Shown piece by piece: positions 3,165 to 32,208 of a stretch of 37,256 bases of DNA; position 1 is the stretch's first letter, and every line of letters starts with the position of its first letter. The notes below the pieces were generated by a model. That model saw only the letters and a program-made list of their open reading frames with translations. It was not told the origin of the DNA and did no database searches. The stretch is taken from the IMG/VR virus record IMGVR_UViG_2537561978_000007; one strand, written 5' to 3'. Source of the stretch: a virus (taxonomy: Duplodnaviria; Heunggongvirae; Uroviricota; Caudoviricetes). The translations under genes and the position numbers were made by a program.

Positions 3165-4265
3165 TCATTCCATTTCGAAATCATCAATCCTCACTTCAAG
3201 CTCCAGACTGGTCGTAAAACCGTTATCCGGGCTGACGGTATGTGTCAGAGTCGTAATGGTCCATTCCGCATCATCTATCGGCTGTTTAAAACCACTGACC
3301 TTCACAGGCATTTCCGTGTAGAGATCTGCCCGCCCTTCCGCCAGTTGTAGCGAGAATGACGCAACGCCACGTTGCAGGCGTTCCCACTGCATTTTCGCTG
3401 CCCGTTCGGCGTTACTCCGATTGGCATAGGTGCGATTGAGTACCAGCACGTTTTCATCCGTACCCACCAGGTAATCACCCTGCTTCACTTCCGGCTCTTT
3501 CTTCTGCTTCTTAGTTCTGCGCTTACGCTTCACCGTGGTGCTTTCTTTCTTCGCAGGTTCGCGGGTATGCAACCAGCTGGCAATGACGCCCGTGTAGGCT
3601 CCGCGATCTGCCAGGGTAAAGCGGTGACTGTCGCCGTCCTTGCGTGTGATAGTGATCACTGGCAGTGGTTTACCAGTGGCGCTTTTGCCCTGCCCCTGCC
3701 GGATGAATAACAGATTGCCATTTTTCACCGACGCGATGGCACCGTACTGTCGCGCCAGCCGCATCAGAAAACTGCCGTCACTCTCATTAGTCTGGTCTAT
3801 ATGCTCCACGGGCTTATCCGACAGGTCTTTACCCAGTGCCATCTTCAGCTTGTGACGCGCGGCTATTTCCTTAACCACTTCCCCGATGGTGGTGTTATGC
3901 CACGATTTTTCACGGCGGGTATTCAGGGTTTCCCGAAAATCAGCACTTCGCGCCCGGATAGTCAGGCGGTCCGGTGCGCCAGTGTGTTCAATCTCGTCCA
4001 CCGTGAATGCCCCTTTCGGGAAAAGCGGCTGCCCCTTCCAGCCCAGCGCCAGCGTAATGACCGCACCACGGCGCGGCAGCACGATTTTTCCGTCAGCGTC
4101 GTCCAGCTCCAGATCAAGCTGGTCCGCTTCAAAGCCCCGGTTATCCGTCAGCGTAAGCCCCATCAGGCGGTTGTCCAGCACAGTGGTGATATCCTTGCCT
4201 GCAATACTGATGCTGAATGCCGGAGTTTTGTTGCTTTTGTTAAGCAGTTCAGAGCTGAAATTCAC
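3165..4265 (-). CDS. D: Tail protein D (late control gene D)
   Basis: 366 aa; P2 gpD-like sequence and position between U and ogr. Confidence 0.9.
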   Translation of the reverse strand: MNFSSELLNKSNKTPAFSISIAGKDITTVLDNRLMGLTLTDNRGFEADQLDLELDDADGKIVLPRRGAVITLALGWKGQPLFPKGAFTVDEIEHTGAPDRLTIRARSADFRETLNTRREKSWHNTTIGEVVKEIAARHKLKMALGKDLSDKPVEHIDQTNESDGSFLMRLARQYGAIASVKNGNLLFIRQGQGKSATGKPLPVITITRKDGDSHRFTLADRGAYTGVIASWLHTREPAKKESTTVKRKRRTKKQKKEPEVKQGDYLVGTDENVLVLNRTYANRSNAERAAKMQWERLQRGVASFSLQLAEGRADLYTEMPVKVSGFKQPIDDAEWTITTLTHTVSPDNGFTTSLELEVRIDDFEME

Positions 4266-4747
4266 GACAGCAGCCCTCCAACCGTTTTACTGATATCGCT
4301 TAAAGCAGACGTTGCCGTGTCCTGCAGATTATTCAGTTGAGTACTGAGATCACCGAACATATCGGACAGGGATTCATCCACCCGTTTTAGCGACAGGGTG
4401 AACTCAATCCGGCGCGGCATACCGTCGCGGAAAAACTCCGTTTTAGTCTGATTCAGTCCCTCAATCACATACATGCCGTAAATCGTGCCGCTTCCTTCAA
4501 TCAGGGGCCATGCTTTCCCCTGTTCTGCCATCTGCTCCAGTGCCAGTAACGACAGCCTGCCGCCTGTTATCTCCGGCATAAGAACACCGGAAAGCGTCAG
4601 CATGTCGTTTTCCGGTCCCAGAAACTGCGTGGACGGACGACGGTTTACCCTGCTGTTTGCCGCATGTCGCCAGCTGCGTTGATACTGCAGCTCCTGATAC
4701 GGCACGGTGCGCAGCATAAACACGTACAATCCCAGCACCATCATCAT
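4262..4747 (-). CDS. U: Tail protein U
   Basis: 161 aa; 4-bp overlap with D start; P2 gpU-like. Confidence 0.85.
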   Translation of the reverse strand: MMMVLGLYVFMLRTVPYQELQYQRSWRHAANSRVNRRPSTQFLGPENDMLTLSGVLMPEITGGRLSLLALEQMAEQGKAWPLIEGSGTIYGMYVIEGLNQTKTEFFRDGMPRRIEFTLSLKRVDESLSDMFGDLSTQLNNLQDTATSALSDISKTVGGLLS

Positions 4748-7700
4748 GCGTCGTATCCCCCCTGATCGCTGTAGTTACTCCTGGCTTTTGCCTTCAGCCT
4801 GCGTTCACGTTCATCAAGCTGACGGGCCACCTCCCGCGCAATATCCTGCGCACTTTGTCCTGGCTGCGTCTGAATGATGATCTGCGTCGGTGCCTCAATC
4901 CGTTGAACGGGCGGCACAGTGGCTGCACGACTCACCATCGCTTCGCCGCCTTTCGCGGGAAGTGCCAAAGGATGTAACGGTGGAAGCTCTGCAGGCGCGG
5001 CAGCAACGCCCATCATTCCGGCAACAACAGCAGCCAGTGCAGCGGTATTTTTCCGGCTGGTCACATTTGCCGGGCCGTTAACAATTTCCGGCCCGTTTTC
5101 ACCGACGATGCCAAACTGCCCGCGCGGGATATAGCCGCCGCTGTCATACATCCCCGCAAAGCCATATCCCCATGACGGAAAACCACCCGATGGCATCATC
5201 ACTTTGCCGTCTGCATTCACCGTCGCAGGTTGCTGACGCGTCACGCGTTCCGGCAGTTTTGCCTTTGCGGCCTCTTTACTGACAATGCCGAGTTTTTCCA
5301 GCAACCAGGATACGCCGGATTTCAGGGAGTCCAGCGGATGCATGACCATATTCAGTCCTTCCGCCAGTGCCTCCCCGAATCGTTGCCCCATTGCCGCTGC
5401 GCTCTGCAGTTCAGCAGAGGTCGACTTAACGGGCGTCAGCAGATCAGTAAACCAGCCCCACAACGCCTGCACTTTGTCGCCAATCCACTGGAACACAGGC
5501 TTAAGTGGTTCGAATGCGGCACTGACGGGACCAGCCGCTGCTTTGAATCCTTCCACCACGCCACCGAGAAATGCGGTGATGGGTTGCCAGTATTTCCAGA
5601 CAACCAGTGCCACACCCGCCAGTGCTGTAACCACAAGACCTATTGGACTAAGCAGAGCACCTAACAGACCAGATACGGCATACAGGGCAACGCGCAACAT
5701 CGCCAGTGGACCAGATGCCAGTACTCGCAGCACCGCGCCTGCGGCGGTCAGTCCACCGCGTAGTGCTGCCAGTGGATTCATAAACATCACAGCAACCGCA
5801 CGTAAACCGGATAATCCAGACCGCAACAGTGCAACCGGCGCACCTGCTACAGTTTTCAGGACATTTCCCGTCAGTGATGCCGTGCGGCGCAAAGACGACA
5901 ACGGCGCAGTAAGTAAACCCGCGGCGTTGCCCGATGAAGCAAGCCCGCGTCGCAGCTGTGCCAGTGGTGCGCCAGCCAGCCAGGACAACGCGCTGCTGGT
6001 TCGAGTTACTGCTGCCGTAACGGAAGGTAACGTTTTGATACCCAGCACAGAGAATCCCAGACGGATCACTGCCAGCGGCCCCAGCACTGCAGCCAGCGCT
6101 ACCGCTAAGGTGCCGAGGCCTACGGTAACCGCAGCCACCACAGCGGCTACTTTCATCAGTGTGCCTGTCAGTCCCGGGTTAGCTTCCACCCAGCGGCGCA
6201 ACGCCCCCGTGATGCTTTTCACCGTGTACAGAATATCCATCAGCGGCTGGCGCAGCGTCTCGCCCAGGCTGCTGAAGGTGTTCTGCGCTCCGGTTTTGAT
6301 CAGCAACCACTGCGCAGAAAGTGAGTCCTTGTTAATGTCGGATTCTTTCTGCATGGAAGCGAGCGCATCATTGCCCGCTGTCAGTTTTAGCTGGCGCTGC
6401 AGTTCCGGAAGGTTGTTTGCCAGTTTCGCCGCGTCATCACCAAACTCTTTACCAAACAACATGGTCATGGCAGACAGACGCTTGTCCTGCGGCAGTGCGT
6501 TCACCTTCTCCAGCACACGCTGGATAGTTCCCATCGCATCCTTCGTCATCTGCTTTTCAATCACTTCAGGATTGAGTTTCAGCAGATTCATCCCTTCAAA
6601 GAAACTCTTGCTTTGCATGGTGGCAATGGACAATTCACGCACCATCGCGTTTGCTGCACTGGCTGCAACCTCCGGCGCAGCGCCCAGTGTCAGAAAGGTG
6701 GAACCCAGTGCCGCCGCTTTACGATAATCCAGACGGTCAGCCACACCGCCCAGACGTTGCATCACATCAATGATGTCCGCCCCTTTCGACATGGCGTTAT
6801 CATCCAGATAGTTCAGTGCATCGCCGAGCTGTTCAATATTGCGGGTAGGTATTTTGTAGAGCTGGGCGATTTTCCCCAGACTTTCTGACAGTTCATCCGC
6901 TGGCAGCTCAAAGGCTGTTGCCGCCTTTGCTGCCGTACTGGCGAAGGCCAGCAGGTCACGTTTCTGGTCTTCCCAGCTGTCGTCAGGGTTTGCGACGTTC
7001 ATGCGCGCACCACCTTCAACCAGTGCAGCGAAGTCCACCGCACCGTTTTCCATCGGCAACTGTTCGCTGGCAGCCTTGATGGCATCCTGCATTTCATAAA
7101 AACGTACAGTGCGGTTGCCATTATCGTCACGCAGACCATTGACCTGCTTTGCCACACCTTTCATGGCATCTTCCATGCTGGTATAGCTTTTTACTGCCGC
7201 CATCACTGGCGCACCCATTGCCAGCCCTGCAGCCGTGGTAGTGGCTCCGGCTCCTGCGATGCGATCGCGCACTTCAAGCCGTCTTGAGTATTGTTCTCTG
7301 GCAGCGTTCATCCGTGCCTGTTGTTCACCCAGACGTTTAAGTGCTTTTTGCTGACCCTCCAGTGCCTGCCTTGTTTCTTCAGCATTTTTCTTAAGTTCTC
7401 GCTGGGCACTACTGAGTTGTCTGGTATCAATCCCTGATTCTTTAAGTGCCTGACGTTGTCTTTGGACCGCCCCCAACAAGCCGTTATAGGTCTGCTGAAG
7501 TTCCTGTACTCGTGTTTTGGCCTGACTGAATAACTTTGCCTGCGCGGCGGTTGGCCTGTTAGTGGCAGCAAATTGTGTGGCGAGTTTTGCCGCCTCTTCG
7601 CGGGCTGCGTTCAGGTTGTTGGCTGTTATGGCTAGTTGCGAGCGCGTCTTGCGAAATTCATCAATTCTGCCAGCCTGCTTATTCAGTTCTTTGAGGCTGT

Positions 7701-10144: not shown

Positions 10145-10717
10145 TCAGGGAGATTCATTGCTCTTATTTGCCGGAAATTTTCTATAAATGGTAGAAACGC
10201 CTACATCAAAAATCAGTGCAATACGCTGTCTTGATTCTCCGGCCTCGAGTAAACGCCCAATCTGTGCCCACTGTTCGGTAGTCAACTTAGGACGGCGTCC
10301 ACCTACTCTGCCTTTAGCACGAGCTGCAGCCAGCCCTGCCCTGGTACGTTCAACTATCAGTTCGCGTTCCATTTCAGCCAGGGCACCCATGACATGAAAA
10401 AAGAAACTGCCCATTGGGGTACTGGTATCAATACTGTCAGTCAGACTTCGGAAATTCACGCCGCGCTGGCGCAACTCTTCTATCAGCGTAACAAGATGCC
10501 GCATACTGCGCCCCAACCTGTCCAGCTTCCAGACAACCAGTGTGTCACCTGCCGATAGTGTCCTGAGCAGTTTTTTAAGCCCCGGTCTGTCGGACTTAGT
10601 GCCACTGATTTTGTCCTCAAAAATCCGCTCACATCCCGCGCAGTTCAGCGCACTACGTTGCAAATCGGTGTTCTGGTCATTTGTTGACACGCGTACATAG
10701 CCAATAAGCATGATCAT
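10145..10717 (-). CDS. Serine-recombinase DNA invertase (Pin/Gin/Hin/Cin family)
   Basis: 190 aa; resolvase catalytic region IGYVRVSTNDQNTDLQ and C-terminal HTH; very similar to my recollection of e14 Pin; sits at the P2 Z/fun position beside an invertible segment; true start may be the Met at 10711. Confidence 0.9.
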   Translation of the reverse strand: MIMLIGYVRVSTNDQNTDLQRSALNCAGCERIFEDKISGTKSDRPGLKKLLRTLSAGDTLVVWKLDRLGRSMRHLVTLIEELRQRGVNFRSLTDSIDTSTPMGSFFFHVMGALAEMERELIVERTRAGLAAARAKGRVGGRRPKLTTEQWAQIGRLLEAGESRQRIALIFDVGVSTIYRKFPANKSNESP

Positions 10718-10766
10718 CTCCTTGAATAAAAACCGGGGATGATGCCAGTTAGTCGTAATCGCTGCA

Positions 10767-10792
10767 TTTTCTTAAACGTTGGTTTAGGAGAA
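10767..10792. repeat. Invertase crossover site (left), hix/gix-like 26-bp site
   Basis: Minus-strand reading TTCTCCTAAACC-AA-CGTTTAAGAAAA; 15-bp perfect inverted repeat TTGGTTTAGGAGAAG (10779-10793) with the site inside gene H. Confidence 0.6.
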
Positions 10793-11137
10793 GCGGCGAA
10801 AAGGGATGTGGGCACAGGAGATAATCAGATACCGGATATGTCTTTCTGGTCTTCCGCATCGGGTGGCGTTAATTTCCCTAATGGATTCCAGATGCGATTC
10901 GGTGCTATCGCTGGTAATGGTGGAAAATTATTTTCTACGCCATTTACAAATCAGTGCTATGGCATTGTTTTCGGACAAACATATGGAGCCAACTACTGGA
11001 TGTTCAGCCCGATGTACAGAGCATCTGATCTGAGTAATACCAGTTTTGCATTCATTAACAAAGCCTGGTCTGGAATTCCGGGGACAGGTGCTCAGGACGC
11101 TGGTGAATCAGTTTTTTATATTGCAGTAGGGTATTAA
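10781..11137 (+). CDS. Alternative (currently unexpressed) tail-fibre C-terminal variable segment
   Basis: Frame continues from the crossover-site motif LGLGE shared with gene H (H: AYLGLGEG; here VGLGEAAK); no independent start expected, becomes H C-terminus after inversion. Confidence 0.55.
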   Translation, partial: GLGEAAKRDVGTGDNQIPDMSFWSSASGGVNFPNGFQMRFGAIAGNGGKLFSTPFTNQCYGIVFGQTYGANYWMFSPMYRASDLSNTSFAFINKAWSGIPGTGAQDAGESVFYIAVGY

Positions 11138-11138
11138 T

Positions 11139-11582
11139 ATGGAAATGGTTTATAGCGCCTCAAATAATAGTTTTTTCGCTAAAAATGATGTGGCGAAATA
11201 TGAACAGGCCGGATGGGAACTTGCTGATATTGTCGAAGTGACATATGACACTTACCTGGAATTTATTGAAGACAGAACGTTGCAAGGGAAAGTACGCATC
11301 GCGGGTGATGATGGCCTTCCCACCTGGGGGGAAATTCCACCGCCAACTCATGAGGAACAAATTGCCGCAGCCGAACTGGAAAAGCAGCAATTGATTAATC
11401 AGGTCAACGAATACATATACAGTAAGCAATGGCCTGGTAAAGCAGCGATTGGTCGCCTGAAAGGTGAGGAACTGGCGCAATATAATTTGTGGCTGGATTA
11501 TCTGGACGCACTGGAACTGGTTGATACCTCCAGTGCTCCAGATATTGAATGGCCTACGCCTCCGGCAGTTCAGGCCAGATGA
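11139..11582 (+). CDS. Alternative tail-fibre assembly chaperone (Tfa/U'-like)
   Basis: 147 aa; C-terminal tfa motif ...DYLDALELVDTSSAPDIEWPTPP paralleling the minus-strand tfa (...DYIDAVTATDTSTAPDVIWPELP); 3' ends of the two tfa genes overlap convergently. Confidence 0.7.
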   Translation: MEMVYSASNNSFFAKNDVAKYEQAGWELADIVEVTYDTYLEFIEDRTLQGKVRIAGDDGLPTWGEIPPPTHEEQIAAAELEKQQLINQVNEYIYSKQWPGKAAIGRLKGEELAQYNLWLDYLDALELVDTSSAPDIEWPTPPAVQAR

Positions 11583-16225: not shown

Positions 16226-18184
16226 TCAATTAAACTTTACAGGTTTATCACTTATAAAAAAATTTTCAATTTTGGCAATCCACTCTGGCCTTTTCCGCTC
16301 ATTTCGCTCACAGATTGAAATATATTCCTTTGAAAAATCAAACTTAATTCCTTCACGGTCAAAAAAAGCATCAAGCGTTTTTTTGTTCTTGGGTGACAAA
16401 TCCATCGCAGCAAACGATGAATGTCTTTCATCTATCATAACATTACTATTAGGCAGCAATGCCTGAAGCTCAGGAAAACGTGAAGAAAATGATGTTAAAG
16501 CCTCTATAAACGATACAGGATTAAGACAATCCTCTATTTCTGTTGCAGGAGAAACTGGATTGGAAGAAATATCAACCAACTTCACTGAATCACCTACACT
16601 AACAATTCGCTTACAAACAACATGCGGCATAACTGGGGTATCATATGACACCAACTCTGAATCTGTATCGGTTAGTAAGAACACTTTTCCTTTGAGGTCT
16701 TTTTTGAACTCTTCATAAGAAGCTTCTAAATGCTTAAATATTTTTTTAACTTCACTAGCTCCCCCTACAGGCACAATCCTTAGCCTTTTATTTTCTACCA
16801 AGTCCTTTAGATAATGCGAAAGATATATTTTTTCTGTAGTACCCTCACAAATCAACCAATTGTAAGGTTTCTCAGCCAAACAGCTAGATATTATGGATTG
16901 TATAAGGTCATTTACACTTTTTATTTTTATATCAAATGGCATACCCGGGGAAGAGGTTTTTACTTTCTTCCTGACTTCTTCTCTATAACTGGCAAGATCA
17001 TATAATTCAAAATGATGAGTTGAATCTGTTTTAAGGATAGTTGTGGTACATCCATTTTCGACGGTTGGAAGATAGCCATACCAATGTGAAGTAAATATTA
17101 ATTGTTCACATATACCACTAATAGAATAGAGCTTTTCAAATTGTTCAAAACATGCAGACATATGAAGAGAACATTCTGGCTCATCAATTCCAATAATCAG
17201 ATTATCGCCATTTTCTCTATGATTGGTAAGAAACCCATATGCAATATCCATTATTGCACGTTGCTTCTCCCCTGAACTTAGCGAGCTAATTTCAATCCAA
17301 CCTGAATTCTGCTTTTTATTTAATTTCCTAACTTTGAAGAATGCTTCGATAATCAAATTATAAACATCTTTCTTTTTTAATCGCGATTGTCTCTCGCCAG
17401 ATGTTCTATAACCATATTCTTCAAGCTCCTCTTCAACACCATCCAGAAATTTGGCAAGCCCTGTATTGATTTGACTTATGGTTCTATCAGATATTCTATC
17501 TTTAATTATCTGCTCTAAAGACTCACCCATCAACTTTTGTACTTCACTTGTTTCTAGCTTCGTAAACGATTCAGAGTCTATATCCTTTGGAATATATATA
17601 TATTCATACTTATGGCGGACATGATGTAATAAATACCCAAAGTGCTTACTAAGCAACTCGCTCGAAACTTTATTATCGGGATTATCAACCTCCAAAAGTC
17701 GACATAAACTCTTCCCATTAAGAATCGAAATACTTACATCACCATCTTTCTCGACACCCAGAGGGATCAAAAAATAATCTTGGAGATTTAAATTTCTTTT
17801 TAATTTGTTAATATGTTCAAAAAACGTATTAATTATATTTCGTGTTGTTGGCGTCAATGTAACATCAGCATTACTATTGCTATATTCTAATACTAATTGC
17901 GTTAAGATTTCAGCTTTAGCATGATGATCTTCATGTAATTCCTCTCGCTTTATAAGATATAAAGGAACAATATGTGGAGAAGGTCTGTCACTGGAGGTTC
18001 TTTTAAATGAAGAATTAATATTCCATGGTTTGTTATTAATAAACGAATCTAAAGCCTCAAGAACAGAACTTTTGCCAATTCCATTGTTACCAACAATTCC
18101 ACAAAACTGACTTCCAGAAGATAACGGTATGTAATGATTTCCGTTGTATGTTTTAAAATACCTTAAAAAAATCCCTACTATCAT
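16226..18184 (-). CDS. OLD-family ABC-ATPase/Toprim nuclease (class-1 OLD-like or fused PARIS-like); anti-phage defence candidate
   Basis: 652 aa; Walker A GIVGNNGIGKSSVLEAL; ABC signature-like LSSGEKQ; Walker B/D-loop LIIGIDEPECSLH; H-loop TSH; C-terminal Toprim motifs ICEGTTE and LLTDTDSE; aligns by eye to P2 Old (LVGYNNAGKS, FIDEPELYLHP, LLVEGKTE, ADCDF); strongly AT-rich relative to flanking phage genes. Confidence 0.75.
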   Translation of the reverse strand: MIVGIFLRYFKTYNGNHYIPLSSGSQFCGIVGNNGIGKSSVLEALDSFINNKPWNINSSFKRTSSDRPSPHIVPLYLIKREELHEDHHAKAEILTQLVLEYSNSNADVTLTPTTRNIINTFFEHINKLKRNLNLQDYFLIPLGVEKDGDVSISILNGKSLCRLLEVDNPDNKVSSELLSKHFGYLLHHVRHKYEYIYIPKDIDSESFTKLETSEVQKLMGESLEQIIKDRISDRTISQINTGLAKFLDGVEEELEEYGYRTSGERQSRLKKKDVYNLIIEAFFKVRKLNKKQNSGWIEISSLSSGEKQRAIMDIAYGFLTNHRENGDNLIIGIDEPECSLHMSACFEQFEKLYSISGICEQLIFTSHWYGYLPTVENGCTTTILKTDSTHHFELYDLASYREEVRKKVKTSSPGMPFDIKIKSVNDLIQSIISSCLAEKPYNWLICEGTTEKIYLSHYLKDLVENKRLRIVPVGGASEVKKIFKHLEASYEEFKKDLKGKVFLLTDTDSELVSYDTPVMPHVVCKRIVSVGDSVKLVDISSNPVSPATEIEDCLNPVSFIEALTSFSSRFPELQALLPNSNVMIDERHSSFAAMDLSPKNKKTLDAFFDREGIKFDFSKEYISICERNERKRPEWIAKIENFFISDKPVKFN

Positions 18185-24270: not shown

Positions 24271-26037
24271 ATGAACACCACACTGACACCCGCAGATCTC
24301 GATCCCCGTCGGCAGGCCATGCTGCTGTACTTTCAGGGATACCGCGTAGCCCGCATTGCTGAAATGCTGGGCGAGAAAGTTGCAACTGTTCACAGCTGGA
24401 AAAAACGCGACAAGTGGGGTGACTATGGGCCGCTGGATCAGATGCAGCTCACCACCGCCGCACGCTACTGCCAGCTCATTATGAAGGAGCACAAAGAAGG
24501 GAAAGATTTCAAAGAGATTGACCTGCTGGCGCGCCAGTCGGAGCGCCATGCGCGGATCGGCAAGTTTAACAATGGCGGCAACGAAGCCGACTTAAACCCT
24601 AACGTCGCCAACCGCAACAAAGGCCCGCGCCGTCAGCCGGAAAAGAACGTTTTCACCGATGAACAGATTGAGAAGCTGGAAGAAATCTTCCATTCCTCCA
24701 TGTTCAACTACCAGCGCCACTGGTGGGAAGCCGGAAAAAACAACCGCATCCGCAACCTGCTGAAGTCACGCCAGATCGGCGCAACCTTTTACTTTGCCCG
24801 TGAAGCCCTGATTGACGCTCTGCTTACCGGGCGTAACCAGATTTTCCTTTCCGCCAGTAAGGCACAGGCCCACGTCTTTAAGCAGTACATCATCGACTTC
24901 GCCAAAGAAGTGGAGGTGGAGCTGAAAGGCGATCCGATGGTGCTTCCTAACGGGGCCACGCTTTACTTCCTAGGCACCAATGCCCGCACGGCCCAGAGTT
25001 ATCACGGCAACCTGTATCTGGATGAATATTTCTGGATACCAAAATTTCAGGAGCTGCGCAAAGTGGCTTCCGGTATGGCTATTCACAAGAAATGGCGACA
25101 GACCTATTTTTCCACGCCATCCAGCCTGACCCACAGTGCTTATCCGTTCTGGTCCGGCGCGTTGTTCAACCGTGGGCGCAACAAAGCCGATAAGGTGGAC
25201 ATCGACCTGTCCCACAGCAATCTGGCCCCCGGCCTGCTGTGCGCAGACGGGCAATACCGCCAGATAGTCACCGTGGAAGATGCGGTACGCGGCGGCTGTA
25301 ACCTGTTCGACCTCGACCAGTTGCGCATGGAGTACAGCCCGGACGAATACCAGAACCTGCTGATGTGCGAGTTCGTTGACGATCTCGCATCTGTGTTCCC
25401 GCTCAGCGAATTGCAGGCGTGCATGGTGGACAGCTGGGAAGTCTGGACCGACTTTCATGCACTGGCGCTGCGCCCGTTTGGCTGGCGCGAAGTGTGGATC
25501 GGTTATGACCCGGCAAAAGGTACGCAGAACGGCGACAGTGCCGGATGCGTGGTGGTGGCTCCGCCAGCCGTGCCGGGCGGTAAGTTCCGTATTCTTGAGC
25601 GTCACCAGTGGCGCGGGATGGACTTCCGCGCCCAGGCGGACGCCATCAAAAAACTGACCGAACAGTACAACGTGACATATATCGGCATCGACTCGACAGG
25701 TGTCGGTCACGGGGTTTATGAGAACGTGAAAGCGTTCTTTCCTGCCGTCCGGGAGTTTGTCTACAACCCCAACGTTAAAAACGCCCTGGTACTCAAGGCC
25801 TACGACATTATCAGCCACCGCCGTCTGGAGTTTGACGCCGGACACACCGACATTGCGCAGTCATTCATGGCAATCCGTCGCGCAACCACCGCCAGCGGCA
25901 ACCGCCCGACCTATGAAGCCAGCCGCAGCGAAGAAGCCAGCCACGCCGATCTGGCCTGGGCAACAATGCACGCACTGTTTAACGAACCACTGCAGGGCGA
26001 GTCCGCCAATACCAGTAATATTGTGGAGATTTTTTGA
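24271..26037 (+). CDS. P: Terminase large (ATPase) subunit P
   Basis: 588 aa; P2 gpP-like. Confidence 0.9.
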   Translation: MNTTLTPADLDPRRQAMLLYFQGYRVARIAEMLGEKVATVHSWKKRDKWGDYGPLDQMQLTTAARYCQLIMKEHKEGKDFKEIDLLARQSERHARIGKFNNGGNEADLNPNVANRNKGPRRQPEKNVFTDEQIEKLEEIFHSSMFNYQRHWWEAGKNNRIRNLLKSRQIGATFYFAREALIDALLTGRNQIFLSASKAQAHVFKQYIIDFAKEVEVELKGDPMVLPNGATLYFLGTNARTAQSYHGNLYLDEYFWIPKFQELRKVASGMAIHKKWRQTYFSTPSSLTHSAYPFWSGALFNRGRNKADKVDIDLSHSNLAPGLLCADGQYRQIVTVEDAVRGGCNLFDLDQLRMEYSPDEYQNLLMCEFVDDLASVFPLSELQACMVDSWEVWTDFHALALRPFGWREVWIGYDPAKGTQNGDSAGCVVVAPPAVPGGKFRILERHQWRGMDFRAQADAIKKLTEQYNVTYIGIDSTGVGHGVYENVKAFFPAVREFVYNPNVKNALVLKAYDIISHRRLEFDAGHTDIAQSFMAIRRATTASGNRPTYEASRSEEASHADLAWATMHALFNEPLQGESANTSNIVEIF

Positions 26038-27062
26038 TGGGAAAGAGTAAGAAGAACCGCGCTGCGTCGACGAACCAGCTCCAGCATAAAAGCCAGACTT
26101 CAGCCGAAGCATTCAGCTTCGGTGATCCCGTTCCTGTTCTGGACCGCCGTGAACTGCTGGACTATGTGGAATGCGTACAGACAGATCGCTGGTATGAGCC
26201 GCCCGTCAGCTTTGACGGACTGGCGCGCACCTTCCGCGCCGCCGTGCATCACAGTTCTCCGATTGCAGTAAAGTGCAACATTCTGACCAGTACCTATATC
26301 CCTCATCCGCTGCTCAGCCAGCAGGCTTTTTCGCGTTTTGTGCAGGACTATCTGGTATTTGGTAACGCCTACCTGGAGAAACGCACGAACCGATTCGGTG
26401 AAGTTATCGCCCTTGATCCTGCGCTGGCAAAATACACCCGACGCGGGTTAGACCTGGATACCTACTGGTTTGTGCAATACGGTATGACAACCCAGCCGTA
26501 TCAGTTCACGAAAGGCAGCATTTTTCATCTGATGGAACCGGACATCAACCAGGAGATCTACGGCCTGCCCGGCTATCTTTCTGCCATTCCGTCAGCCCTG
26601 CTCAATAAGTCCGCCACGCTGTTCCGCCGCAAGTATTACATCAACGGCAGCCATGCAGGCTTCATCATGTATATGACCGATGCCGCGCAGAATCAGGAGG
26701 ATGTGAACAATCTCCGCAACGCGATGAAAAGTGCCAAAGGTCCTGGTAACTTCCGTAACCTGTTTATGTACTCGCCTAACGGTAAAAAGGACGGGCTTCA
26801 GATTATCCCGTTGTCAGAAGTGGCGGCGAAGGATGAGTTCCTGAATATCAAGAACGTGAGCCGGGACGACATGATGGCGGCGCATCGTGTGCCGCCACAA
26901 ATGATGGGGATAATGCCTAATAATGTTGGAGGGTTTGGGGATGTGGAGAAGGCGAGTAAGGTTTTTGTTAGAAATGAACTAATTCCACTCCAAAAAAGAA
27001 TAATGGAAGTTAATGAATGGTTAGGTGAGAAAACTATCCGATTTCAGCATTATGATTTATAA
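26034..27062 (+). CDS. Q: Portal protein Q
   Basis: 342 aa; P2 gpQ-like; 4-bp overlap with P. Confidence 0.9.
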   Translation: MMGKSKKNRAASTNQLQHKSQTSAEAFSFGDPVPVLDRRELLDYVECVQTDRWYEPPVSFDGLARTFRAAVHHSSPIAVKCNILTSTYIPHPLLSQQAFSRFVQDYLVFGNAYLEKRTNRFGEVIALDPALAKYTRRGLDLDTYWFVQYGMTTQPYQFTKGSIFHLMEPDINQEIYGLPGYLSAIPSALLNKSATLFRRKYYINGSHAGFIMYMTDAAQNQEDVNNLRNAMKSAKGPGNFRNLFMYSPNGKKDGLQIIPLSEVAAKDEFLNIKNVSRDDMMAAHRVPPQMMGIMPNNVGGFGDVEKASKVFVRNELIPLQKRIMEVNEWLGEKTIRFQHYDL

Positions 27063-27087
27063 AAAAACGCCCTAAAAGGGCGTTTTC
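27063..27087. terminator. Bidirectional rho-independent terminator between Q and the convergent cargo operon
   Basis: AAAAAAACGCCC-taaaa-GGGCGTTTT; A-tract and T-tract on either side. Confidence 0.6.
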
Positions 27088-27534
27088 CTAAGATTCTGTC
27101 GTTGTCTCTAATGAACACCAAGCATTAATTCCCATTTTTGAGACAGCTATCAACATAATTACTACAGCTGGAGCAATAAATGTTGCTGTTGCCCCCAAAG
27201 AACCCGCAATTGCCGAAGAGATCACCCCTACAAAGTATGTTTTAACATCACCAGTCAGTGCTCCTAAACATTCCCTCTCCTCTGCATATTTATCACCTCC
27301 ACATACAAAAGCCTTAAACTCTAATTTAAACTGCTCAACAAACGCTTTTCTTCCCGGCATTTTTGAATTATCACCGCCAAATTGAGCAACTGAACTTGGG
27401 CCAGATGCAGTTAGCCATAGCTCAAGAGCCTTTTCTTCATCGCCATTTTCGAGAAAATTCCTGACAGATGAAGATTGATACGTTTTTAAAGTGGACAACC
27501 AAGACTCAGCATCTTCATTTGGTATAGCAATCAT
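27088..27534 (-). CDS. Small tail-anchored membrane protein, unknown function (cargo gene 2 of the protease cassette)
   Basis: 148 aa; soluble acidic N-terminus, C-terminal about 40-residue hydrophobic Gly/Ala-rich hairpin (YFVGVISSAIAGSLGATATFIAPAVVIMLIAV); ATGA overlap with upstream protease gene; AT-rich. Confidence 0.6.
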   Translation of the reverse strand: MIAIPNEDAESWLSTLKTYQSSSVRNFLENGDEEKALELWLTASGPSSVAQFGGDNSKMPGRKAFVEQFKLEFKAFVCGGDKYAEERECLGALTGDVKTYFVGVISSAIAGSLGATATFIAPAVVIMLIAVSKMGINAWCSLETTTES

Positions 27535-28178
27535 AACATATCCTTAACATATTCTGCAGAAACCGCATAAGTTGTCTGATGTAGTTCAGCTGGATTAATA
27601 CCTCCAACCAAAACAGAACCTCCAGAATTATTTGCATAAGCGCCAACCAAGACGCCTATTACCGAGTCATTTTTTAAATTAAATACAATCGATCCCGATT
27701 GACCAGGTCTGGTTTGGATATTTATAACGGCATGTTTAGATTGAATATTACTGCTTGAAAGTAAAACTTTTGCACCTATTTTTGCCGTTTGAAATGTCAA
27801 TACTTTTCTATTTTCATTACAATGTGGGAAACCTAAAATACCCACATCTTCACCGACATTAACATCGTCAAGAGTAGCAATTTTTAGGCAAGGTTCATAA
27901 ACAGGTGCATTTTTAATTTTTAACACACATAAGTCTTTTATTGGATCTTCATCAATAACATCAACTCCAATACATTGAAATTTATCAACACTTGTATCCT
28001 GATAACTATTAAAGTTATTTATATTAGATGGAGAAATAACTAAGTTAGAAGAAAACCCATTAATAACATGGCGGGAAGTAATTATTTTATCCTTAGAAAT
28101 AAAAAAACCTGTTCCTAAAAAACTAACCAAACCTGCATTAAGCACGCCAACAACTACGACATATTCAGGACCAATCAT
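27531..28178 (-). CDS. Trypsin-like (S1/Trypsin_2-type) serine peptidase, cargo gene 1
   Basis: 215 aa from the Met at 28178, with GGAG 6 nt upstream; catalytic-triad contexts GTGFFISKDKIITSRHV (His), DPIKDLCVLKI (Asp), TRPGQSGSIVFN (Ser); AT-rich. Confidence 0.7.
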   Translation of the reverse strand: MIGPEYVVVVGVLNAGLVSFLGTGFFISKDKIITSRHVINGFSSNLVISPSNINNFNSYQDTSVDKFQCIGVDVIDEDPIKDLCVLKIKNAPVYEPCLKIATLDDVNVGEDVGILGFPHCNENRKVLTFQTAKIGAKVLLSSSNIQSKHAVINIQTRPGQSGSIVFNLKNDSVIGVLVGAYANNSGGSVLVGGINPAELHQTTYAVSAEYVKDML

Positions 28179-28261
28179 AACAACTCCATTCTGTAATATG
28201 TTATGGACTCTGACTAAGACAATACTTAACCAAACCGTGAATATCAAGGTGCAAGCGCGCG

Positions 28262-28280
28262 CTCGTATCCCCGCCACGCC
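28262..28280 (-). other. Candidate cos cohesive-end sequence
   Basis: Minus-strand GGCGTGGCGGGGATACGAG; the first 13 nt match the P2/186 cohesive-end start GGCG(A/T)GGCGGGGA as I recall it; GC-rich island between Q-side cargo and the early region. Confidence 0.45.
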
Positions 28281-28622
28281 TGCCCGCTTTATGTAGTGGT
28301 TTTCATGCAGGAGCATGATCTACGCAAAAGCCCGCCAGTTCTGGCGGGCCTTAGCAAAAACGATCCTCAAACGATCATGCAATCTCATGCAGCATAGACA
28401 TGCACAGACGAGTAAAGCGAATCGGACTTTACGCAAGGTGAACTCCTCAGCGGGCATAATCAGTATGTCGGAAGATCTCTAAAAATAAATAATTCGGTTA
28501 ACAGGTATGCTTACAAAAGCATATATTTGATTAAAAATCATGTAAGGGGGAGGATCTCAAACTGAATCGCCACGGGTTTTACAAATTTCGATAGTCTCTC
28601 TAACGTTTCGGCTGAGGTCAAA

Positions 28623-29048
28623 ATGAAAAGCTTTTACGTATTAATTTTAATTCTGGTTGCAAGCTTTGTTAGCGTCCCTGTTCAGGCGGTAACAGCTAAA
28701 AACTATGAGAAAGGAACTAAAGCTCAACAGAAATCAATATCTTACCTTTCATGTGCATTCTATGGCAGTAGCACACAATTAGATCCTAGCTACACGGAGC
28801 AAGTACCTACAGCCGATATCAAGATATTACAGAAAGCAGCTTACCACGCTTACAACGATGCGCTCTCATACTTTGGCTATGAGGAACCAGATCACGAACA
28901 ACGCATAATTGATTATGCTGAATTTGTGGCGTCGCAAGAAGCTGTGTTATGGGATAAGCCGGGAATGAATGGAAAGCAGGTAACACTAATTGCTCGTTCT
29001 CTCTACAATGAGAGTAACTGTAACTTGTTACTGGACTCAATTAAGTAG
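28623..29048 (+). CDS. Secreted protein of unknown function (moron)
   Basis: 141 aa; signal peptide MKSFYVLILILVASFVSVPVQA; GAGG RBS; candidate promoter TTTACA-N17-TAACGT upstream; AT-rich. Confidence 0.6.
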   Translation: MKSFYVLILILVASFVSVPVQAVTAKNYEKGTKAQQKSISYLSCAFYGSSTQLDPSYTEQVPTADIKILQKAAYHAYNDALSYFGYEEPDHEQRIIDYAEFVASQEAVLWDKPGMNGKQVTLIARSLYNESNCNLLLDSIK

Positions 29049-29207
29049 GAAAAAGATGGTATTTTGCCCGTAGTTTCAACCTTAATCTCCGAACCTATCG
29101 CAGAACGGGCGTTCACTCATCAAATAAACGCCACACCTAACGCCTCACTGTACTCGTTGTTCAACCTTGCTGACGCCAGAACCAAGTTCAGACGCCAGCA
29201 ACTTTTC

Positions 29208-29441
29208 TTAATGCAGCCAGCTGTCGTCTTCCCACACCTTCTGCATAATCTTCATCACTTGTTTTCTTTCTTCGTCCAGTTGCAGTCCGGTCAGTTCCAC
29301 ACCGTTAGAGCTACCTTTGCGGATGCGAATTACCGTTTTGGGATACAGGGGGCGCAGATTGCGGTAAAGCTCGGATTCAAGGGCGTCCAGGGTAGACTGG
29401 CTAATCTTCTGCTCTTTATCGATCATTATTTCAATGCGCAT
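29208..29441 (-). CDS. DinI-like protein (C-terminal-like part of a 186 Tum-type antirepressor module)
   Basis: 78 aa from MRIEIMIDKEQ...; aligns with E. coli DinI (MRIEVTIAK...ALAGELSRR...QETWE); GAGGTGA RBS. Confidence 0.7.
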   Translation of the reverse strand: MRIEIMIDKEQKISQSTLDALESELYRNLRPLYPKTVIRIRKGSSNGVELTGLQLDEERKQVMKIMQKVWEDDSWLH

Positions 29442-29451
29442 AAAGGTCACC

Positions 29452-29640
29452 TCAGCTGATGACATCCATTGAGCGGTTGTATTCGTGGGTTCTGATTTTT
29501 GCCATGAGTTCATCTGTCAGTTCAGAAACCCACTGCAAAGCCAGCCCCTTCTCTTCATCACTACACTCACTAGCCGCTACAAGCTTAAGAAAAAAATCAA
29601 TGCGCTGGAGCTTCAAAGACTCCAAAAAATAGTCCTGCAT
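29452..29640 (-). CDS. Small hypothetical protein upstream of the DinI-like gene
   Basis: 63 aa from MQDYFLESL...; start placed downstream of the LexA box; stop 10 nt before the DinI-like start. Confidence 0.4.
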   Translation of the reverse strand: MQDYFLESLKLQRIDFFLKLVAASECSDEEKGLALQWVSELTDELMAKIRTHEYNRSMDVIS

Positions 29641-29683
29641 CTTTCCTCCTATGACACCACAAGCAATACTGTATACATAACCA

Positions 29684-29699
29684 CTGTTTATATTTACAG
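29684..29699. promoter_or_regulatory. LexA (SOS) box CTGT-N8-ACAG
   Basis: CTGTttatatttACAG with an adjacent half-site TACTGTATAC; in AT-rich promoter region upstream of the minus-strand small-ORF/DinI-like operon. Confidence 0.55.
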
Positions 29700-29793
29700 T
29701 ATATAATAATCTTACTGATGTAAAACGTTTTTTTACGTTCATTAGCCTGATATGCCTGGTATTATTAAGAGCACGAATTGTTAACCCGCGTAA

Positions 29794-32208
29794 TTAATAC
29801 AGGTTTCGCCACTTATCATCTTCCTGCAAACGCTGGTTCCGATAGAAGATACGCAGGCCTGCTCCTGACGGAATACTGCCGCCGCGAAGGAGTAAATCGA
29901 CCTCTTTCTCGCTGCCATTAAATCCTCTGGACTTCAGTTCATAGACGAGCTGCTGTCGCTGATGGTCTATAATTCGCTGTTTGTAGTCTTTACGCCGTTT
30001 CGGTTTCACCAGGCGTAACCTTGCAGCCAGTTCCCGGCGCTCTTTTTTGCTCATACTGTGCAGGTAATCGTGCAACTCCTTGTCATCCATGCGGGTAATG
30101 TCCGTCCTGGTATCCCCATCAGCTGATTTGTCTTTCCCTTGTTGGTTCAAATTTTCAGCAAGGGGACAGTTATTGCCACGAGTCCAAGGGGCGCAAGCGC
30201 CCTGGTCGGCTGCCGCCTCCTGAACGTCAACGGCTTTACGAACCATTTTCCACTTCACTGCATGAGTGCAGATCTTGCCTTCTGCAATGGGTGACCAGAT
30301 GCCATAAATACGAATACCGTGATCGCCATAGGCGGTCGGCTCTTCATTGATTTCATAAGCGGTTCTGATCAAGTGATATTTGCGAGGAACCAGCACGCCG
30401 CCCTGCCTCATAATGTAGGTGGCAAAACAGCCAGCATCAGCAGCAGCCAGGATGGCATCAAGGCGCGGGTTATCCAGTACCGGCGCACCTGCTTTTTTGT
30501 CACCCTGCTGCCTTGCCGCCTGACCAGCCAACAACCGCAGTTCACGGTAAGCCTGACGCCCTGGAATACCAAAGAAGCGGAATTGCTGAACACGATGCAG
30601 AGACGCCCAGGCATTAACGTATTCAGCGTTATCACGCAGGGATTTACCCGTTTCCTTGCTGATCTCGCCAGCCAGACCACGCCCGTCAATGTTCTTACTG
30701 ATGTATTTCGCGATGTAGCTTGTCGGCGTTCCTTTGCGCGGGTTTATCAGCTCAGATTTAAAGCGTGGACCAGTGTTATTACCCAGTTCCTCGCGGTCTT
30801 CACGGATGGCAAACTTACGCAACAATGCAGTAATGGCGCGGCGGTCTTTTTTGCGCATAAAACACAACAGGTGCCAGTGAACTGTACCGTCATGATGCGG
30901 CTCAGCCACCCGCACGCCATACCAGCGCAACCCGGCTTTGTGCATCGCCTTACGAAATGCAGCAAACATGCCGACCAGATAATCGCTGCTTTGTCTTACC
31001 GTCGCATTTGTCCAGGTTGGGTTTGGTCTGCCGTTATTGAGCGTGGAATGGAAACGTGACGGACAGGTAATGGTGTAGAAAACGGCGCAGTCACCGCGCA
31101 TTTCCGCGATAAGCTCCAGACCTTTAACACAGGCCATCATCTCATTGCGGCGGTGCGCCGGGTTGCTGCTGCTGGCGTTTACCACGTCTTCCATATCCAG
31201 CGTGTCGCCCTCTTCGTTCACCAGTTCATGAGAACGGAAAAACTCCAGTGACTTGCGGCGCTGCTCACGTTTATGCATCACGGCTTCATAGCTGACATAG
31301 GGAGATGCTTTTTTGCTGACCAGGCAGACAGCACGCAACTGCTCTTCCCGCCATTCGCAACGCATTTTCCATAATTTCCGGTACCACCAGTCGGCGCACA
31401 ACATACGCGCCAGCGAACCCGGAATGAGTTCATAGGGCACGGGTTTACGGCGGTTTCTTTTCCGACGGAGTTGCTCAAACGCAGGCGGGATGACATCCAG
31501 ACGCAGGGTTTCCGCTGCCACCTTTTCCCATGTCTTGCGGATTTCTTCTGGCTTAACGTCATCGGTGGCATACAAATCACCACAAGCTGCATCAAGGCAC
31601 ATGCTCATATGCGCAGCGACAAGGGTAGACAGGCGTTTCACCTGATCCTGACTCATTTCAGGCAGAATCAGCAGGCCGTCCAGCCCTACATGGCTTGCCA
31701 TAAAACGAAAAGATGCAGATAGCTGGCTGTCGCGTACATGCTCCAGTCGTTCCAGACATGGCTTAATCGTCTCACGTAAATAGCGGGAATAAGCCTTTGG
31801 CCTGCCCAGGCTGCTGAAGTATTCAATACGTTGCATCAGCGGCTTGCTGATATGGGAAGGCTGGGCGTTGACGTCCGCCAGAATGACCATATCCGGATTA
31901 AAACGCTGCTGCTCATGCGCCAGCTTTGCCCGGCTAATGAGCTTATCCTGCTCCATTTCGTGCTGGACAGGATCACGTGATTCATTAAAAAAATAACGCT
32001 CCCAGACCTGATCACTCAGTGCCTCGCGGCGCAACTGTTCCTGCTCGTTATCGGCAGCGTACAGAGTGATCAGGTTTGAAAGCGCAGAAACCGGCGCAAC
32101 TTCCGCCGGGTCCAGATAAGGGTTAATGGCCTTTTTCGGGCTGTTCCATGAGAACGCTGCGGCAGCCTCGTTAAAGCCGCAGCAGTTGTTCATATCGGCA
32201 TGGCTCAT
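29794..32208 (-). CDS. A: Replication initiation protein A (rolling-circle nickase)
   Basis: 804 aa; P2/186 gpA-like; position upstream of the tum/cos region. Confidence 0.85.

Follow-up and report, generated by a model that had tools for sequence, protein, structure and literature searches.

We have analysed an open reading frame (ORF) of 141 residues, located at positions 28623–29048 of a 37,256-nucleotide stretch of Caudoviricetes DNA (IMG/VR virus record IMGVR_UViG_2537561978_000007), the whole of which is hereafter called the window. The window corresponds to a 186/P2-like Escherichia coli prophage, reversed relative to the standard P2 map, and the ORF lies between its cohesive-end site (cos) and an operon under SOS control. 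The results show the ORF to be a real gene that is subject to purifying selection, and we consider it very likely that, taken jointly, it is a gene, that it is accessory cargo of the prophage (a moron) and that its product is located in the periplasm. The comparison of related loci evidences two separate variable slots, one per side of cos, and the target gene, which resides in one of them, is, as judged from DNA and protein homology on its 5' side, the orphan 3' half of an older two-gene module; both aspects are newly recognised here. With respect to function, exclusion of superinfecting phages at the level of the envelope is put forward as a tentative best guess.

The ORF is identical to a protein annotated in RefSeq as hypothetical (WP_000834899) and belongs to PHROG 7437, so that the sequence as such is already catalogued. 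Its guanine-plus-cytosine (GC) content is 40.4%, close to that of the cassette that carries it and below that of the window (50.5%) and of the adjacent backbone genes (52–56%). The GAGG ribosome-binding site that precedes it is kept at the E. coli and Klebsiella loci and reads AAGG in Hafnia. The original prediction, made from the letters of the window, had called the gene AT-rich and had pointed to this ribosome-binding site, and both statements are borne out. Among four orthologues the ratio of non-synonymous to synonymous substitution rates (dN/dS) is 0.18–0.26, at a dS of 0.25–0.73. The ORF, its ribosome-binding site and both cysteines of the protein are unbroken in every copy, and the E. 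coli copies, which come from strains of varied hosts and sources, are identical at 99% or above in all cases (101/101).

Cargo slots on either side of cos

Three sets of sequences were compared with the window to establish the arrangement of the region, namely about 30 related IMG/VR loci, Klebsiella loci and E. coli relatives. The backbone match ends with the portal gene Q (~27014–27067), resumes sharply at 28253–28257 and, in relatives without the target gene, stops at 28405. What follows in the window is a 731-bp cassette of which the ORF is the sole intact gene. At the same junction this cassette is replaced by 7 bp in one relative (L048), by about 1.06 kb carrying a DUF6236 gene in a second (L049) and by about 1.25 kb carrying two hypothetical genes in a third (L050). 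In agreement, a count over 5426 complete genomes of E. coli gives about 1306 with the cos/tum/A backbone, of which only 101 carry the target gene; since the slot of relatives is either empty or occupied by other cargo, the gene does not belong to the backbone. The assignment as a moron, which had been suggested before, thus receives support from the absence of the gene at the same junction in close relatives and from its distinct composition, and the distribution among related prophages (101 of ~1306) is not that of a conserved backbone gene, the outcome that had been named as contradicting it. Repeats flanking the cassette were searched for, and nothing convincing was found.

On the other side of cos, the interval between Q and cos is a hypervariable slot that varies independently, from 0.6 to 3.4 kb and with at least 10 different lengths in the IMG/VR loci. 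It is occupied by the candidate defence pair PDC-M35 in the window and by AIPR, nSTAND1 or DUF4325-containing cargo in Klebsiella; the DNA of the PDC-M35 pair of the window was matched by none of the IMG/VR Q–cos slots compared. The two slots are separate, each being variable in its own right.

The putative cos core is assigned by its likeness to the 186 cos sequence. Its assignment also leans on the sharp homology breakpoint at 28253–28257 in the ~30 related loci and on the published description of the locus (PMC9122126). The proposed location between cos and an SOS-regulated module is in this way confirmed, with cos on one side of the ORF and a DinI/Tum-like operon headed by a LexA box on the other, and so is the proposed equivalence with the position of P2 old/tin, as the ORF sits within the cos-proximal gpA–gpQ interval, an experimentally validated anti-phage hotspot of P2 (Rousset et al. 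2022, PMC9122126).

The position of the cassette has a further consequence. A strong intrinsic terminator is found on the minus strand within the conserved segment next to cos, with a folding energy of −30.9 kcal/mol (z = −4.86) that was equalled by none of 200 shuffled sequences. In the empty-slot relative L048 (positions 2570–2600 compared) the terminator lies about 135 nt past the stop codon of the DinI-like gene, and from this arrangement it is read as the backbone terminator of the SOS-controlled DinI/Tum-like operon. Because it trails the DinI-like gene at this short distance in relatives with an empty slot, the cassette of the window lies between the SOS operon and its terminator; by parting the two, the 731 bp should cause SOS-induced transcripts to cross the target gene antisense. 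On the plus strand, an intrinsic terminator was looked for 3' of the target gene, including the interval between the convergent genes, and none was found; a hairpin considered at this place was rejected, as its folding is unexceptional (z = −0.9) and the T run is absent.

The two-transmembrane partner and the spread of the family

In a Hafnia P2-like prophage (L006, the pair at 5333–6426) and in a Klebsiella aerogenes locus (L008), the member of the family is placed directly 3' of a protein of 215 and 219 residues, respectively, which has two N-terminal transmembrane helices. These upstream proteins are homologous to each other (29% identity, E = 3e-18), and the secreted proteins that follow them share only 32–34% identity. 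When the Hafnia 215-residue protein is used as a tblastn query, its residues 190–215 are recovered immediately upstream of the target gene, with 57% identity in the window and 64% (E = 0.002) in the Klebsiella loci; in the window this corresponds to the last ~28 codons of the partner gene, interrupted by stop codons. As DNA homology to the Hafnia cassette begins at 28516, the cassette of E. coli and Klebsiella is a 5'-truncated copy, in which the target gene is the half that survived. Intact copies that lack the partner occupy the P2-like cos slot in E. coli and Klebsiella and the far end of a lambdoid prophage, the secreted protein being alone in most contexts. The Hafnia neighbour was also compared with the S1 protease of the window, which likewise has 215 residues, and the equivalence was rejected, similarity being nil.

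The two-transmembrane family comprises 11 clusters and elsewhere adjoins an unrelated protein. In the Enterobacter cloacae complex (L056–L059, positions 4001–4660) its gene occurs alone, on the chromosome, beside HEPN_LA2681, DUF4225 and SIR2_2 genes; these neighbours suggest that it may be a gene of defence islands in its own right. An obligate antidote role of the secreted protein towards the two-transmembrane partner is unlikely, as each occurs without the other.

The family of the target protein is rare. A word-index homology search recovered 7 clusters, and an exhaustive profile search, which covered one representative from each of 1.8 billion clusters at 50% identity, returned 17 matches at E up to 0.001. 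Fourteen of these are proteins of 94–168 residues matched along the profile (126–168 residues for the full-length ones), and the other three are weak matches to much larger proteins. No relative was found in 185,579 species-representative genomes. The contexts examined are all on mobile elements and all in Enterobacterales. Orthologues are present at the same cos–tum position in Klebsiella P2-like prophages (90% identity), in the S/V (P2 orf30) slot of the Hafnia prophage, where the gene adjoins the candidate defence gene PDC-S11 (77% identity), and at the far end of a lambdoid prophage, past the tail spike and beside the host trp genes (77% identity). Distant relatives, which share 25–40% identity, are located between the integrase and terminase genes of a K. 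aerogenes prophage, on a Salmonella plasmid with a mer operon and insertion sequence (IS) elements alongside, in a Citrobacter prophage remnant, and on SSU5-like phage-plasmids of ~110 kb of the IncFIB type. The orthologues (77–90%) thus occupy three different phage cargo positions, and related genes are carried by several kinds of temperate phage.

The K. aerogenes locus L008 (5267–7635) appears to be a five-gene operon, in which the 219-residue two-transmembrane protein is followed by four small proteins with signal peptides, one of them belonging to the family of the target. A 157-residue secreted neighbour at this locus was considered as a paralogue, a possibility that is unsupported, only an 18-residue C-terminal motif (Y-x3-N-C-x-L-L) being common to both (hhalign probability 17%). 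L014 (Salmonella) and L051 likewise contain several small secreted proteins or lipoproteins in a row.

Predicted protein, proposed function and alternatives

The N-terminus of the target protein has the layout of a Sec signal peptide, with the basic n-region MK, a 16-residue core FYVLILILVASFVSVP of mean Kyte-Doolittle hydrophobicity 2.5 and the sequence V-Q-A/V at positions −3/−1. An equivalent layout is present in 15 of 15 aligned relatives, which agrees with the clear signal peptide claimed in the original prediction, and the segment has a low predicted local distance difference test score (pLDDT) in the model of the full-length protein. Neither a lipobox nor a further transmembrane segment was found in the target protein, the first cysteine being residue 44.

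The mature protein (residues 23–141) was modelled with AlphaFold2 from a 15-sequence alignment, with a pLDDT of 95.1 and a predicted template modelling score (pTM) of 0.88. The model is a five-helix bundle (mature residues 3–31, 41–61, 69–88, 98–108 and 111–118), and the best-conserved stretch, IDYAEFVASQEAVLWDKPGMN, corresponds to helix 3 and the loop after it. The invariant residues are C44 (28752–28754), W110, Y128, N132 and C133 (29019–29021); in the model C44 is within helix 1 and C133 is at the start of helix 5, and given the predicted periplasmic location a disulfide between the two is probable. The predicted fold and the size of the protein suggest a binding protein rather than an enzyme.

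Database searches, which covered the target and 14 relatives, matched one family only, PHROG 7437, which carries neither a functional annotation nor a solved structure (E = 4.3e-99, residues 1–141 of a 141-position profile); the distant relatives P0008, P0016, P0017 and P0022 match it as well. No informative match was obtained for any of these 15 proteins in Pfam and NCBIfam. PADLOC-DB v2 returned 0 families, with the target searched at E up to 1 and four relatives at E up to 0.01, and in the same searches neighbouring genes do match, namely PDC-M35A/B in the window and PDC-S11 in Hafnia. Searches of the PDB gave, by phmmer, only noise to an Xaa-Pro dipeptidase (E = 0.24) and, by profile, nothing. 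Foldseek of the model against BFVD gave a best E of 0.47, and no informative fold match was obtained in the PDB. The GenBank phage collection yielded no match at the DNA or protein level, and a literature search for the target accession and for PDC-M35 found nothing. The earlier statement that the protein resembles no phage structural or replication protein holds, as none was matched in the family-profile searches; the profile and structure searches that had been recommended alongside it provided a family and a confident model, but no functional lead.

The mechanism that we propose is the following. The protein would be exported by Sec and its 22-residue signal peptide cleaved, after which DsbA would oxidise C44 and C133 and so lock helix 1 to helix 5, leaving a 13-kDa acidic five-helix bundle that would remain soluble in the periplasm of the lysogen. 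Acting alone, as the intact partner-less copies suggest, it would bind and neutralise a protein entering the periplasm, the likeliest target being a component with which a superinfecting phage penetrates the envelope or injects its DNA, and the outcome would be an exclusion at the envelope that complements the cytoplasmic defences among the cargo of this prophage. Such a function is possible, though we place it somewhat below even chances, and it is preferred because the neighbours and the slots are dominated by anti-phage cargo; of the two roles named in the original prediction, superinfection exclusion at the envelope and host fitness, each still stands as a hypothesis. Indeed, the gene lies in a validated P2 hotspot (PMC9122126), its Hafnia orthologue neighbours PDC-S11, the partner family is found beside HEPN_LA2681 and SIR2_2, and the window carries both PDC-M35 and an OLD-like protein. 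The wider proposal, in which the protein would found a class of its own, made of soluble anti-phage factors that act in the periplasm, have an unseen helical fold, are traded among temperate phages of several families with or without the two-transmembrane partner and block the entry of competitor DNA, we regard as rather doubtful.

A number of observations weigh against envelope exclusion. The hotspot location is circumstantial only, as such hotspots carry non-defence cargo too, and Rousset et al. list the protein only as 'hypothetical' (at least 32 times in Table S5, beside varied systems; PMC9122126). The relatives that lie among arrays of small secreted proteins fit islands of immunity genes equally well. 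The gene faces the SOS operon, from a place between that operon and its terminator. Finally, expression in lysogens is only predicted, the promoter being a consensus match that occurs at chance frequency. The original prediction had given the gene its own sigma-70-like promoter, and what stands of this is the match itself, at 10 of 12 positions; promoter-like sites are not in excess in the region (4 found versus 3.1 expected in shuffled sequence), and at the orthologous Klebsiella locus the site is degenerate (CTAACA/TATGTT) and below the scan threshold. The same site (28498–28527) straddles the point of truncation, where unassigned sequence meets the remnant of the partner gene.

Two alternatives appear to us unlikely, to about the same degree. 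The first is that the protein is an orphan of the immunity type, neutralising in the periplasm the peptidoglycan or lipid effectors of type VI secretion systems (T6SS), bacteriocins or lysozymes to the benefit of the lysogen. Its small size, its predicted solubility, helical structure and periplasmic location, and its conserved cysteine pair correspond to the general build of Tai4/Rap-type immunity proteins; its relatives in K. aerogenes, in Salmonella and on one metagenome contig lie in runs of unrelated small secreted proteins and lipoproteins; and it is the 'orphan' of a pair in which the other member is anchored in the membrane and has a large domain that probably faces the periplasm. However, with a cut-off of E up to 1, neither Pfam Tai4 nor another immunity family is matched by any member, and no T6SS, bacteriocin or effector gene is located beside any copy examined. 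Moreover, since the two-transmembrane partner occurs alone in Enterobacter, a role as a toxin dependent on the target protein for its antidote is improbable for it.

The second is a lysogenic-conversion factor that serves host fitness and is unrelated to phages or toxins; it might act in the periplasm as a chaperone or in stress, bind a nutrient or another ligand, or aid colonisation. The positions of the gene are the classical ones of morons, including the lambdoid end beyond the tail genes, which is the site of bor, lom and sodC-type genes. In addition, the gene is present in extraintestinal and avian pathogenic E. coli (ExPEC and APEC) and in many E. coli lineages of varied hosts, and small acidic helical periplasmic proteins include the chaperones HdeA and Spy. 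Yet the target has no similarity to HdeA, to Spy/CpxP or to any binding-protein family, and the rarity of the family (17 matches among 1.8 billion cluster representatives and none in 185,579 genomes) would be unusual for a generally useful factor; the family is also confined to mobile-element cargo slots enriched in defence genes.

A functionless leftover of a broken module, or a cis-acting cassette that modulates prophage induction by antisense transcription, is more improbable still: of the partner only a dead stretch of 28 codons is left, the promoter is putative or weak, no terminator separates the convergent genes, so that transcription of the target would enter the tum-like operon antisense, and the cassette sits between the DinI-like gene and its terminator, but dN/dS is as low as given above among copies long without the partner (E. 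coli, Klebsiella and lambdoid), ORF, ribosome-binding site and cysteines are intact throughout, partner-less copies persist in three phage contexts, and a purely cis role would leave the protein sequence unconserved.

Prophage surroundings and comparison with known systems

The features of the region are collected in the table below. The window is identical (100%) to the prophage of strain SF-468 and of other ExPEC/APEC genomes, and an Rfam scan of 26900–29900 gave nothing beyond one sub-threshold chance match.

Table. Features of the window around the target gene, in order of position
Feature	Position	Strand	Remarks
Portal gene Q	26034–27062	+	
PDC-M35B and PDC-M35A pair	27088–28178	−	PADLOC candidate defence system; E = 4e-58 and 8e-94
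Conserved cos-proximal backbone segment	28256–28405		150 bp; left border of the cargo slot, from homology breakpoints in relatives
186-like cos core (assumed)	~28262–28280		GGCGTGGCGGGGATACGAG on the minus strand
Strong intrinsic terminator (predicted)	28326–28349	−	GCCCGCCAGAACUGGCGGGC then UUUU; inside the conserved cos-adjacent segment
Cargo cassette	28406–29136	+	731 bp, 40.6% GC; occupant of the slot that separates cos from the tum-like operon
Sigma-70 promoter-like site	28498–28527	+	TTAACA-18-TATATT; 10/12 matches
Remnant of the partner gene, dead	28517–28600	+	84 bp; last ~28 codons, stop-interrupted; tblastn with the Hafnia 215-residue protein
Ribosome-binding site	28614–28617	+	GAGG, 5 nt before the ATG
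Target ORF	28623–29048	+	141 residues
Sec signal peptide (predicted)	28623–28688	+	Residues 1–22, MKSFYVLILILVASFVSVPVQA; predicted cleavage VQA/VT
Mature protein, predicted periplasmic, and stop codon	28689–29048	+	119 residues, 13.4 kDa, isoelectric point 5.1
SOS-regulated operon	29208–29699	−	Convergent; outside the cassette
DinI/Tum-like gene	29208–29441	−	Convergent with the target ORF
62-residue phrog_698 gene	29452–29640	−	Same operon as the DinI/Tum-like gene
LexA box	29684–29699		Perfect, TACTGTAAATATAAACAGT (CTGT-N8-ACAG inside); precedes the minus-strand operon
Replication gene A	29794–32208	−	

The LexA box overlaps the promoter region of the minus-strand operon, in a layout that resembles 186 p95/tum; in Klebsiella relatives the 62-residue gene is retained and the DinI-like gene is absent. 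In the Q–cos slot, PDC-M35A is an S1/trypsin-like protease of 215 residues and PDC-M35B a membrane protein of 148 residues with a C-terminal hydrophobic segment. A 261-residue ORF starting at 28316 crosses cos, and the real start of the S1 protease is the annotated internal ATG at 28178. Further away, a Hin/Gin-type resolvase (190 residues, minus strand) is found in 10145–11582, beside a short ORF and an opposite-strand tail-fibre assembly gene (Caudo_TAP), and this neighbourhood implies an invertible tail-fibre (host-range) segment. The S/V (P2 orf30) slot of the window is filled by a 652-residue protein (16226–18184, minus strand) that combines an AAA_15 ATPase with an OLD-like TOPRIM domain and is AriA/Old-like in PADLOC; it is the slot that in Hafnia L006 holds the orthologue of the target and its intact partner.

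The closest positional counterpart of the target gene is P2 old/tin. The locus, between gpA and cos, is the same, and so is the orientation, which runs from cos towards A; the target gene is moreover AT-rich accessory cargo that most relatives lack. No homology to P2 Old was found, neither the PADLOC Old model nor the Pfam families matching the target. Old and Tin are cytoplasmic proteins, whereas the target is predicted to be exported, and the prophage encodes its OLD-like protein elsewhere, in the S/V slot.

With phage T4 the likeness is one of concept only. Spackle (Sp, gp61.3), a small helical protein that Sec exports to the periplasm, blocks the tail lysozyme of a superinfecting phage, and Imm, a separate small membrane protein, also contributes to exclusion; the target was ancestrally paired with a two-transmembrane protein. 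Comparison with the solved Sp structures gave no sequence or fold similarity. An assignment to the T6SS amidase immunity proteins of the Tai4/Rap type was rejected, because the match was no better than hundreds of generic helical matches and was lost with the high-confidence model; with neither a Pfam match nor a T6SS context, the target resembles these proteins in general build alone. Cor of phi80/N15, Llp of T5, and Bor and Lom of lambda are encoded by single small cargo genes whose products, lipoproteins or outer-membrane proteins, act at the envelope of the lysogen. The target shares their kind of cargo position, one orthologue being tail-distal in a lambdoid prophage, but differs in having no lipobox, no beta-barrel and no homology to them.

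What is added here is the two-slot architecture, the history of the gene as the orphan of a pair, its occurrence in different types of phage and a confident model for which the libraries searched gave no informative counterpart; and the gene, being small and self-contained, is easily testable. To our knowledge, what has been characterised of the cargo at the P2 cos-proximal hotspot is cytoplasmic defence directed at nucleic acids or nicotinamide adenine dinucleotide (NAD), and hardly any known defence system of the P2/P4 hotspots blocks at the envelope stage. Against this background the target stands out as a soluble, predicted periplasmic protein with no relatives of known function, whose confidently predicted fold has no informative match in the PDB or BFVD. 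Were it to protect against toxins or to aid colonisation, a non-defence lysogenic conversion would be hidden inside a 'defence' hotspot; were envelope exclusion true, the range of mechanisms in the hotspot would be wider than the known systems indicate, and the sides of cos would be shown to act as independent cargo slots. The target is best filed among the prophage accessory genes at the P2 cos-proximal hotspot.
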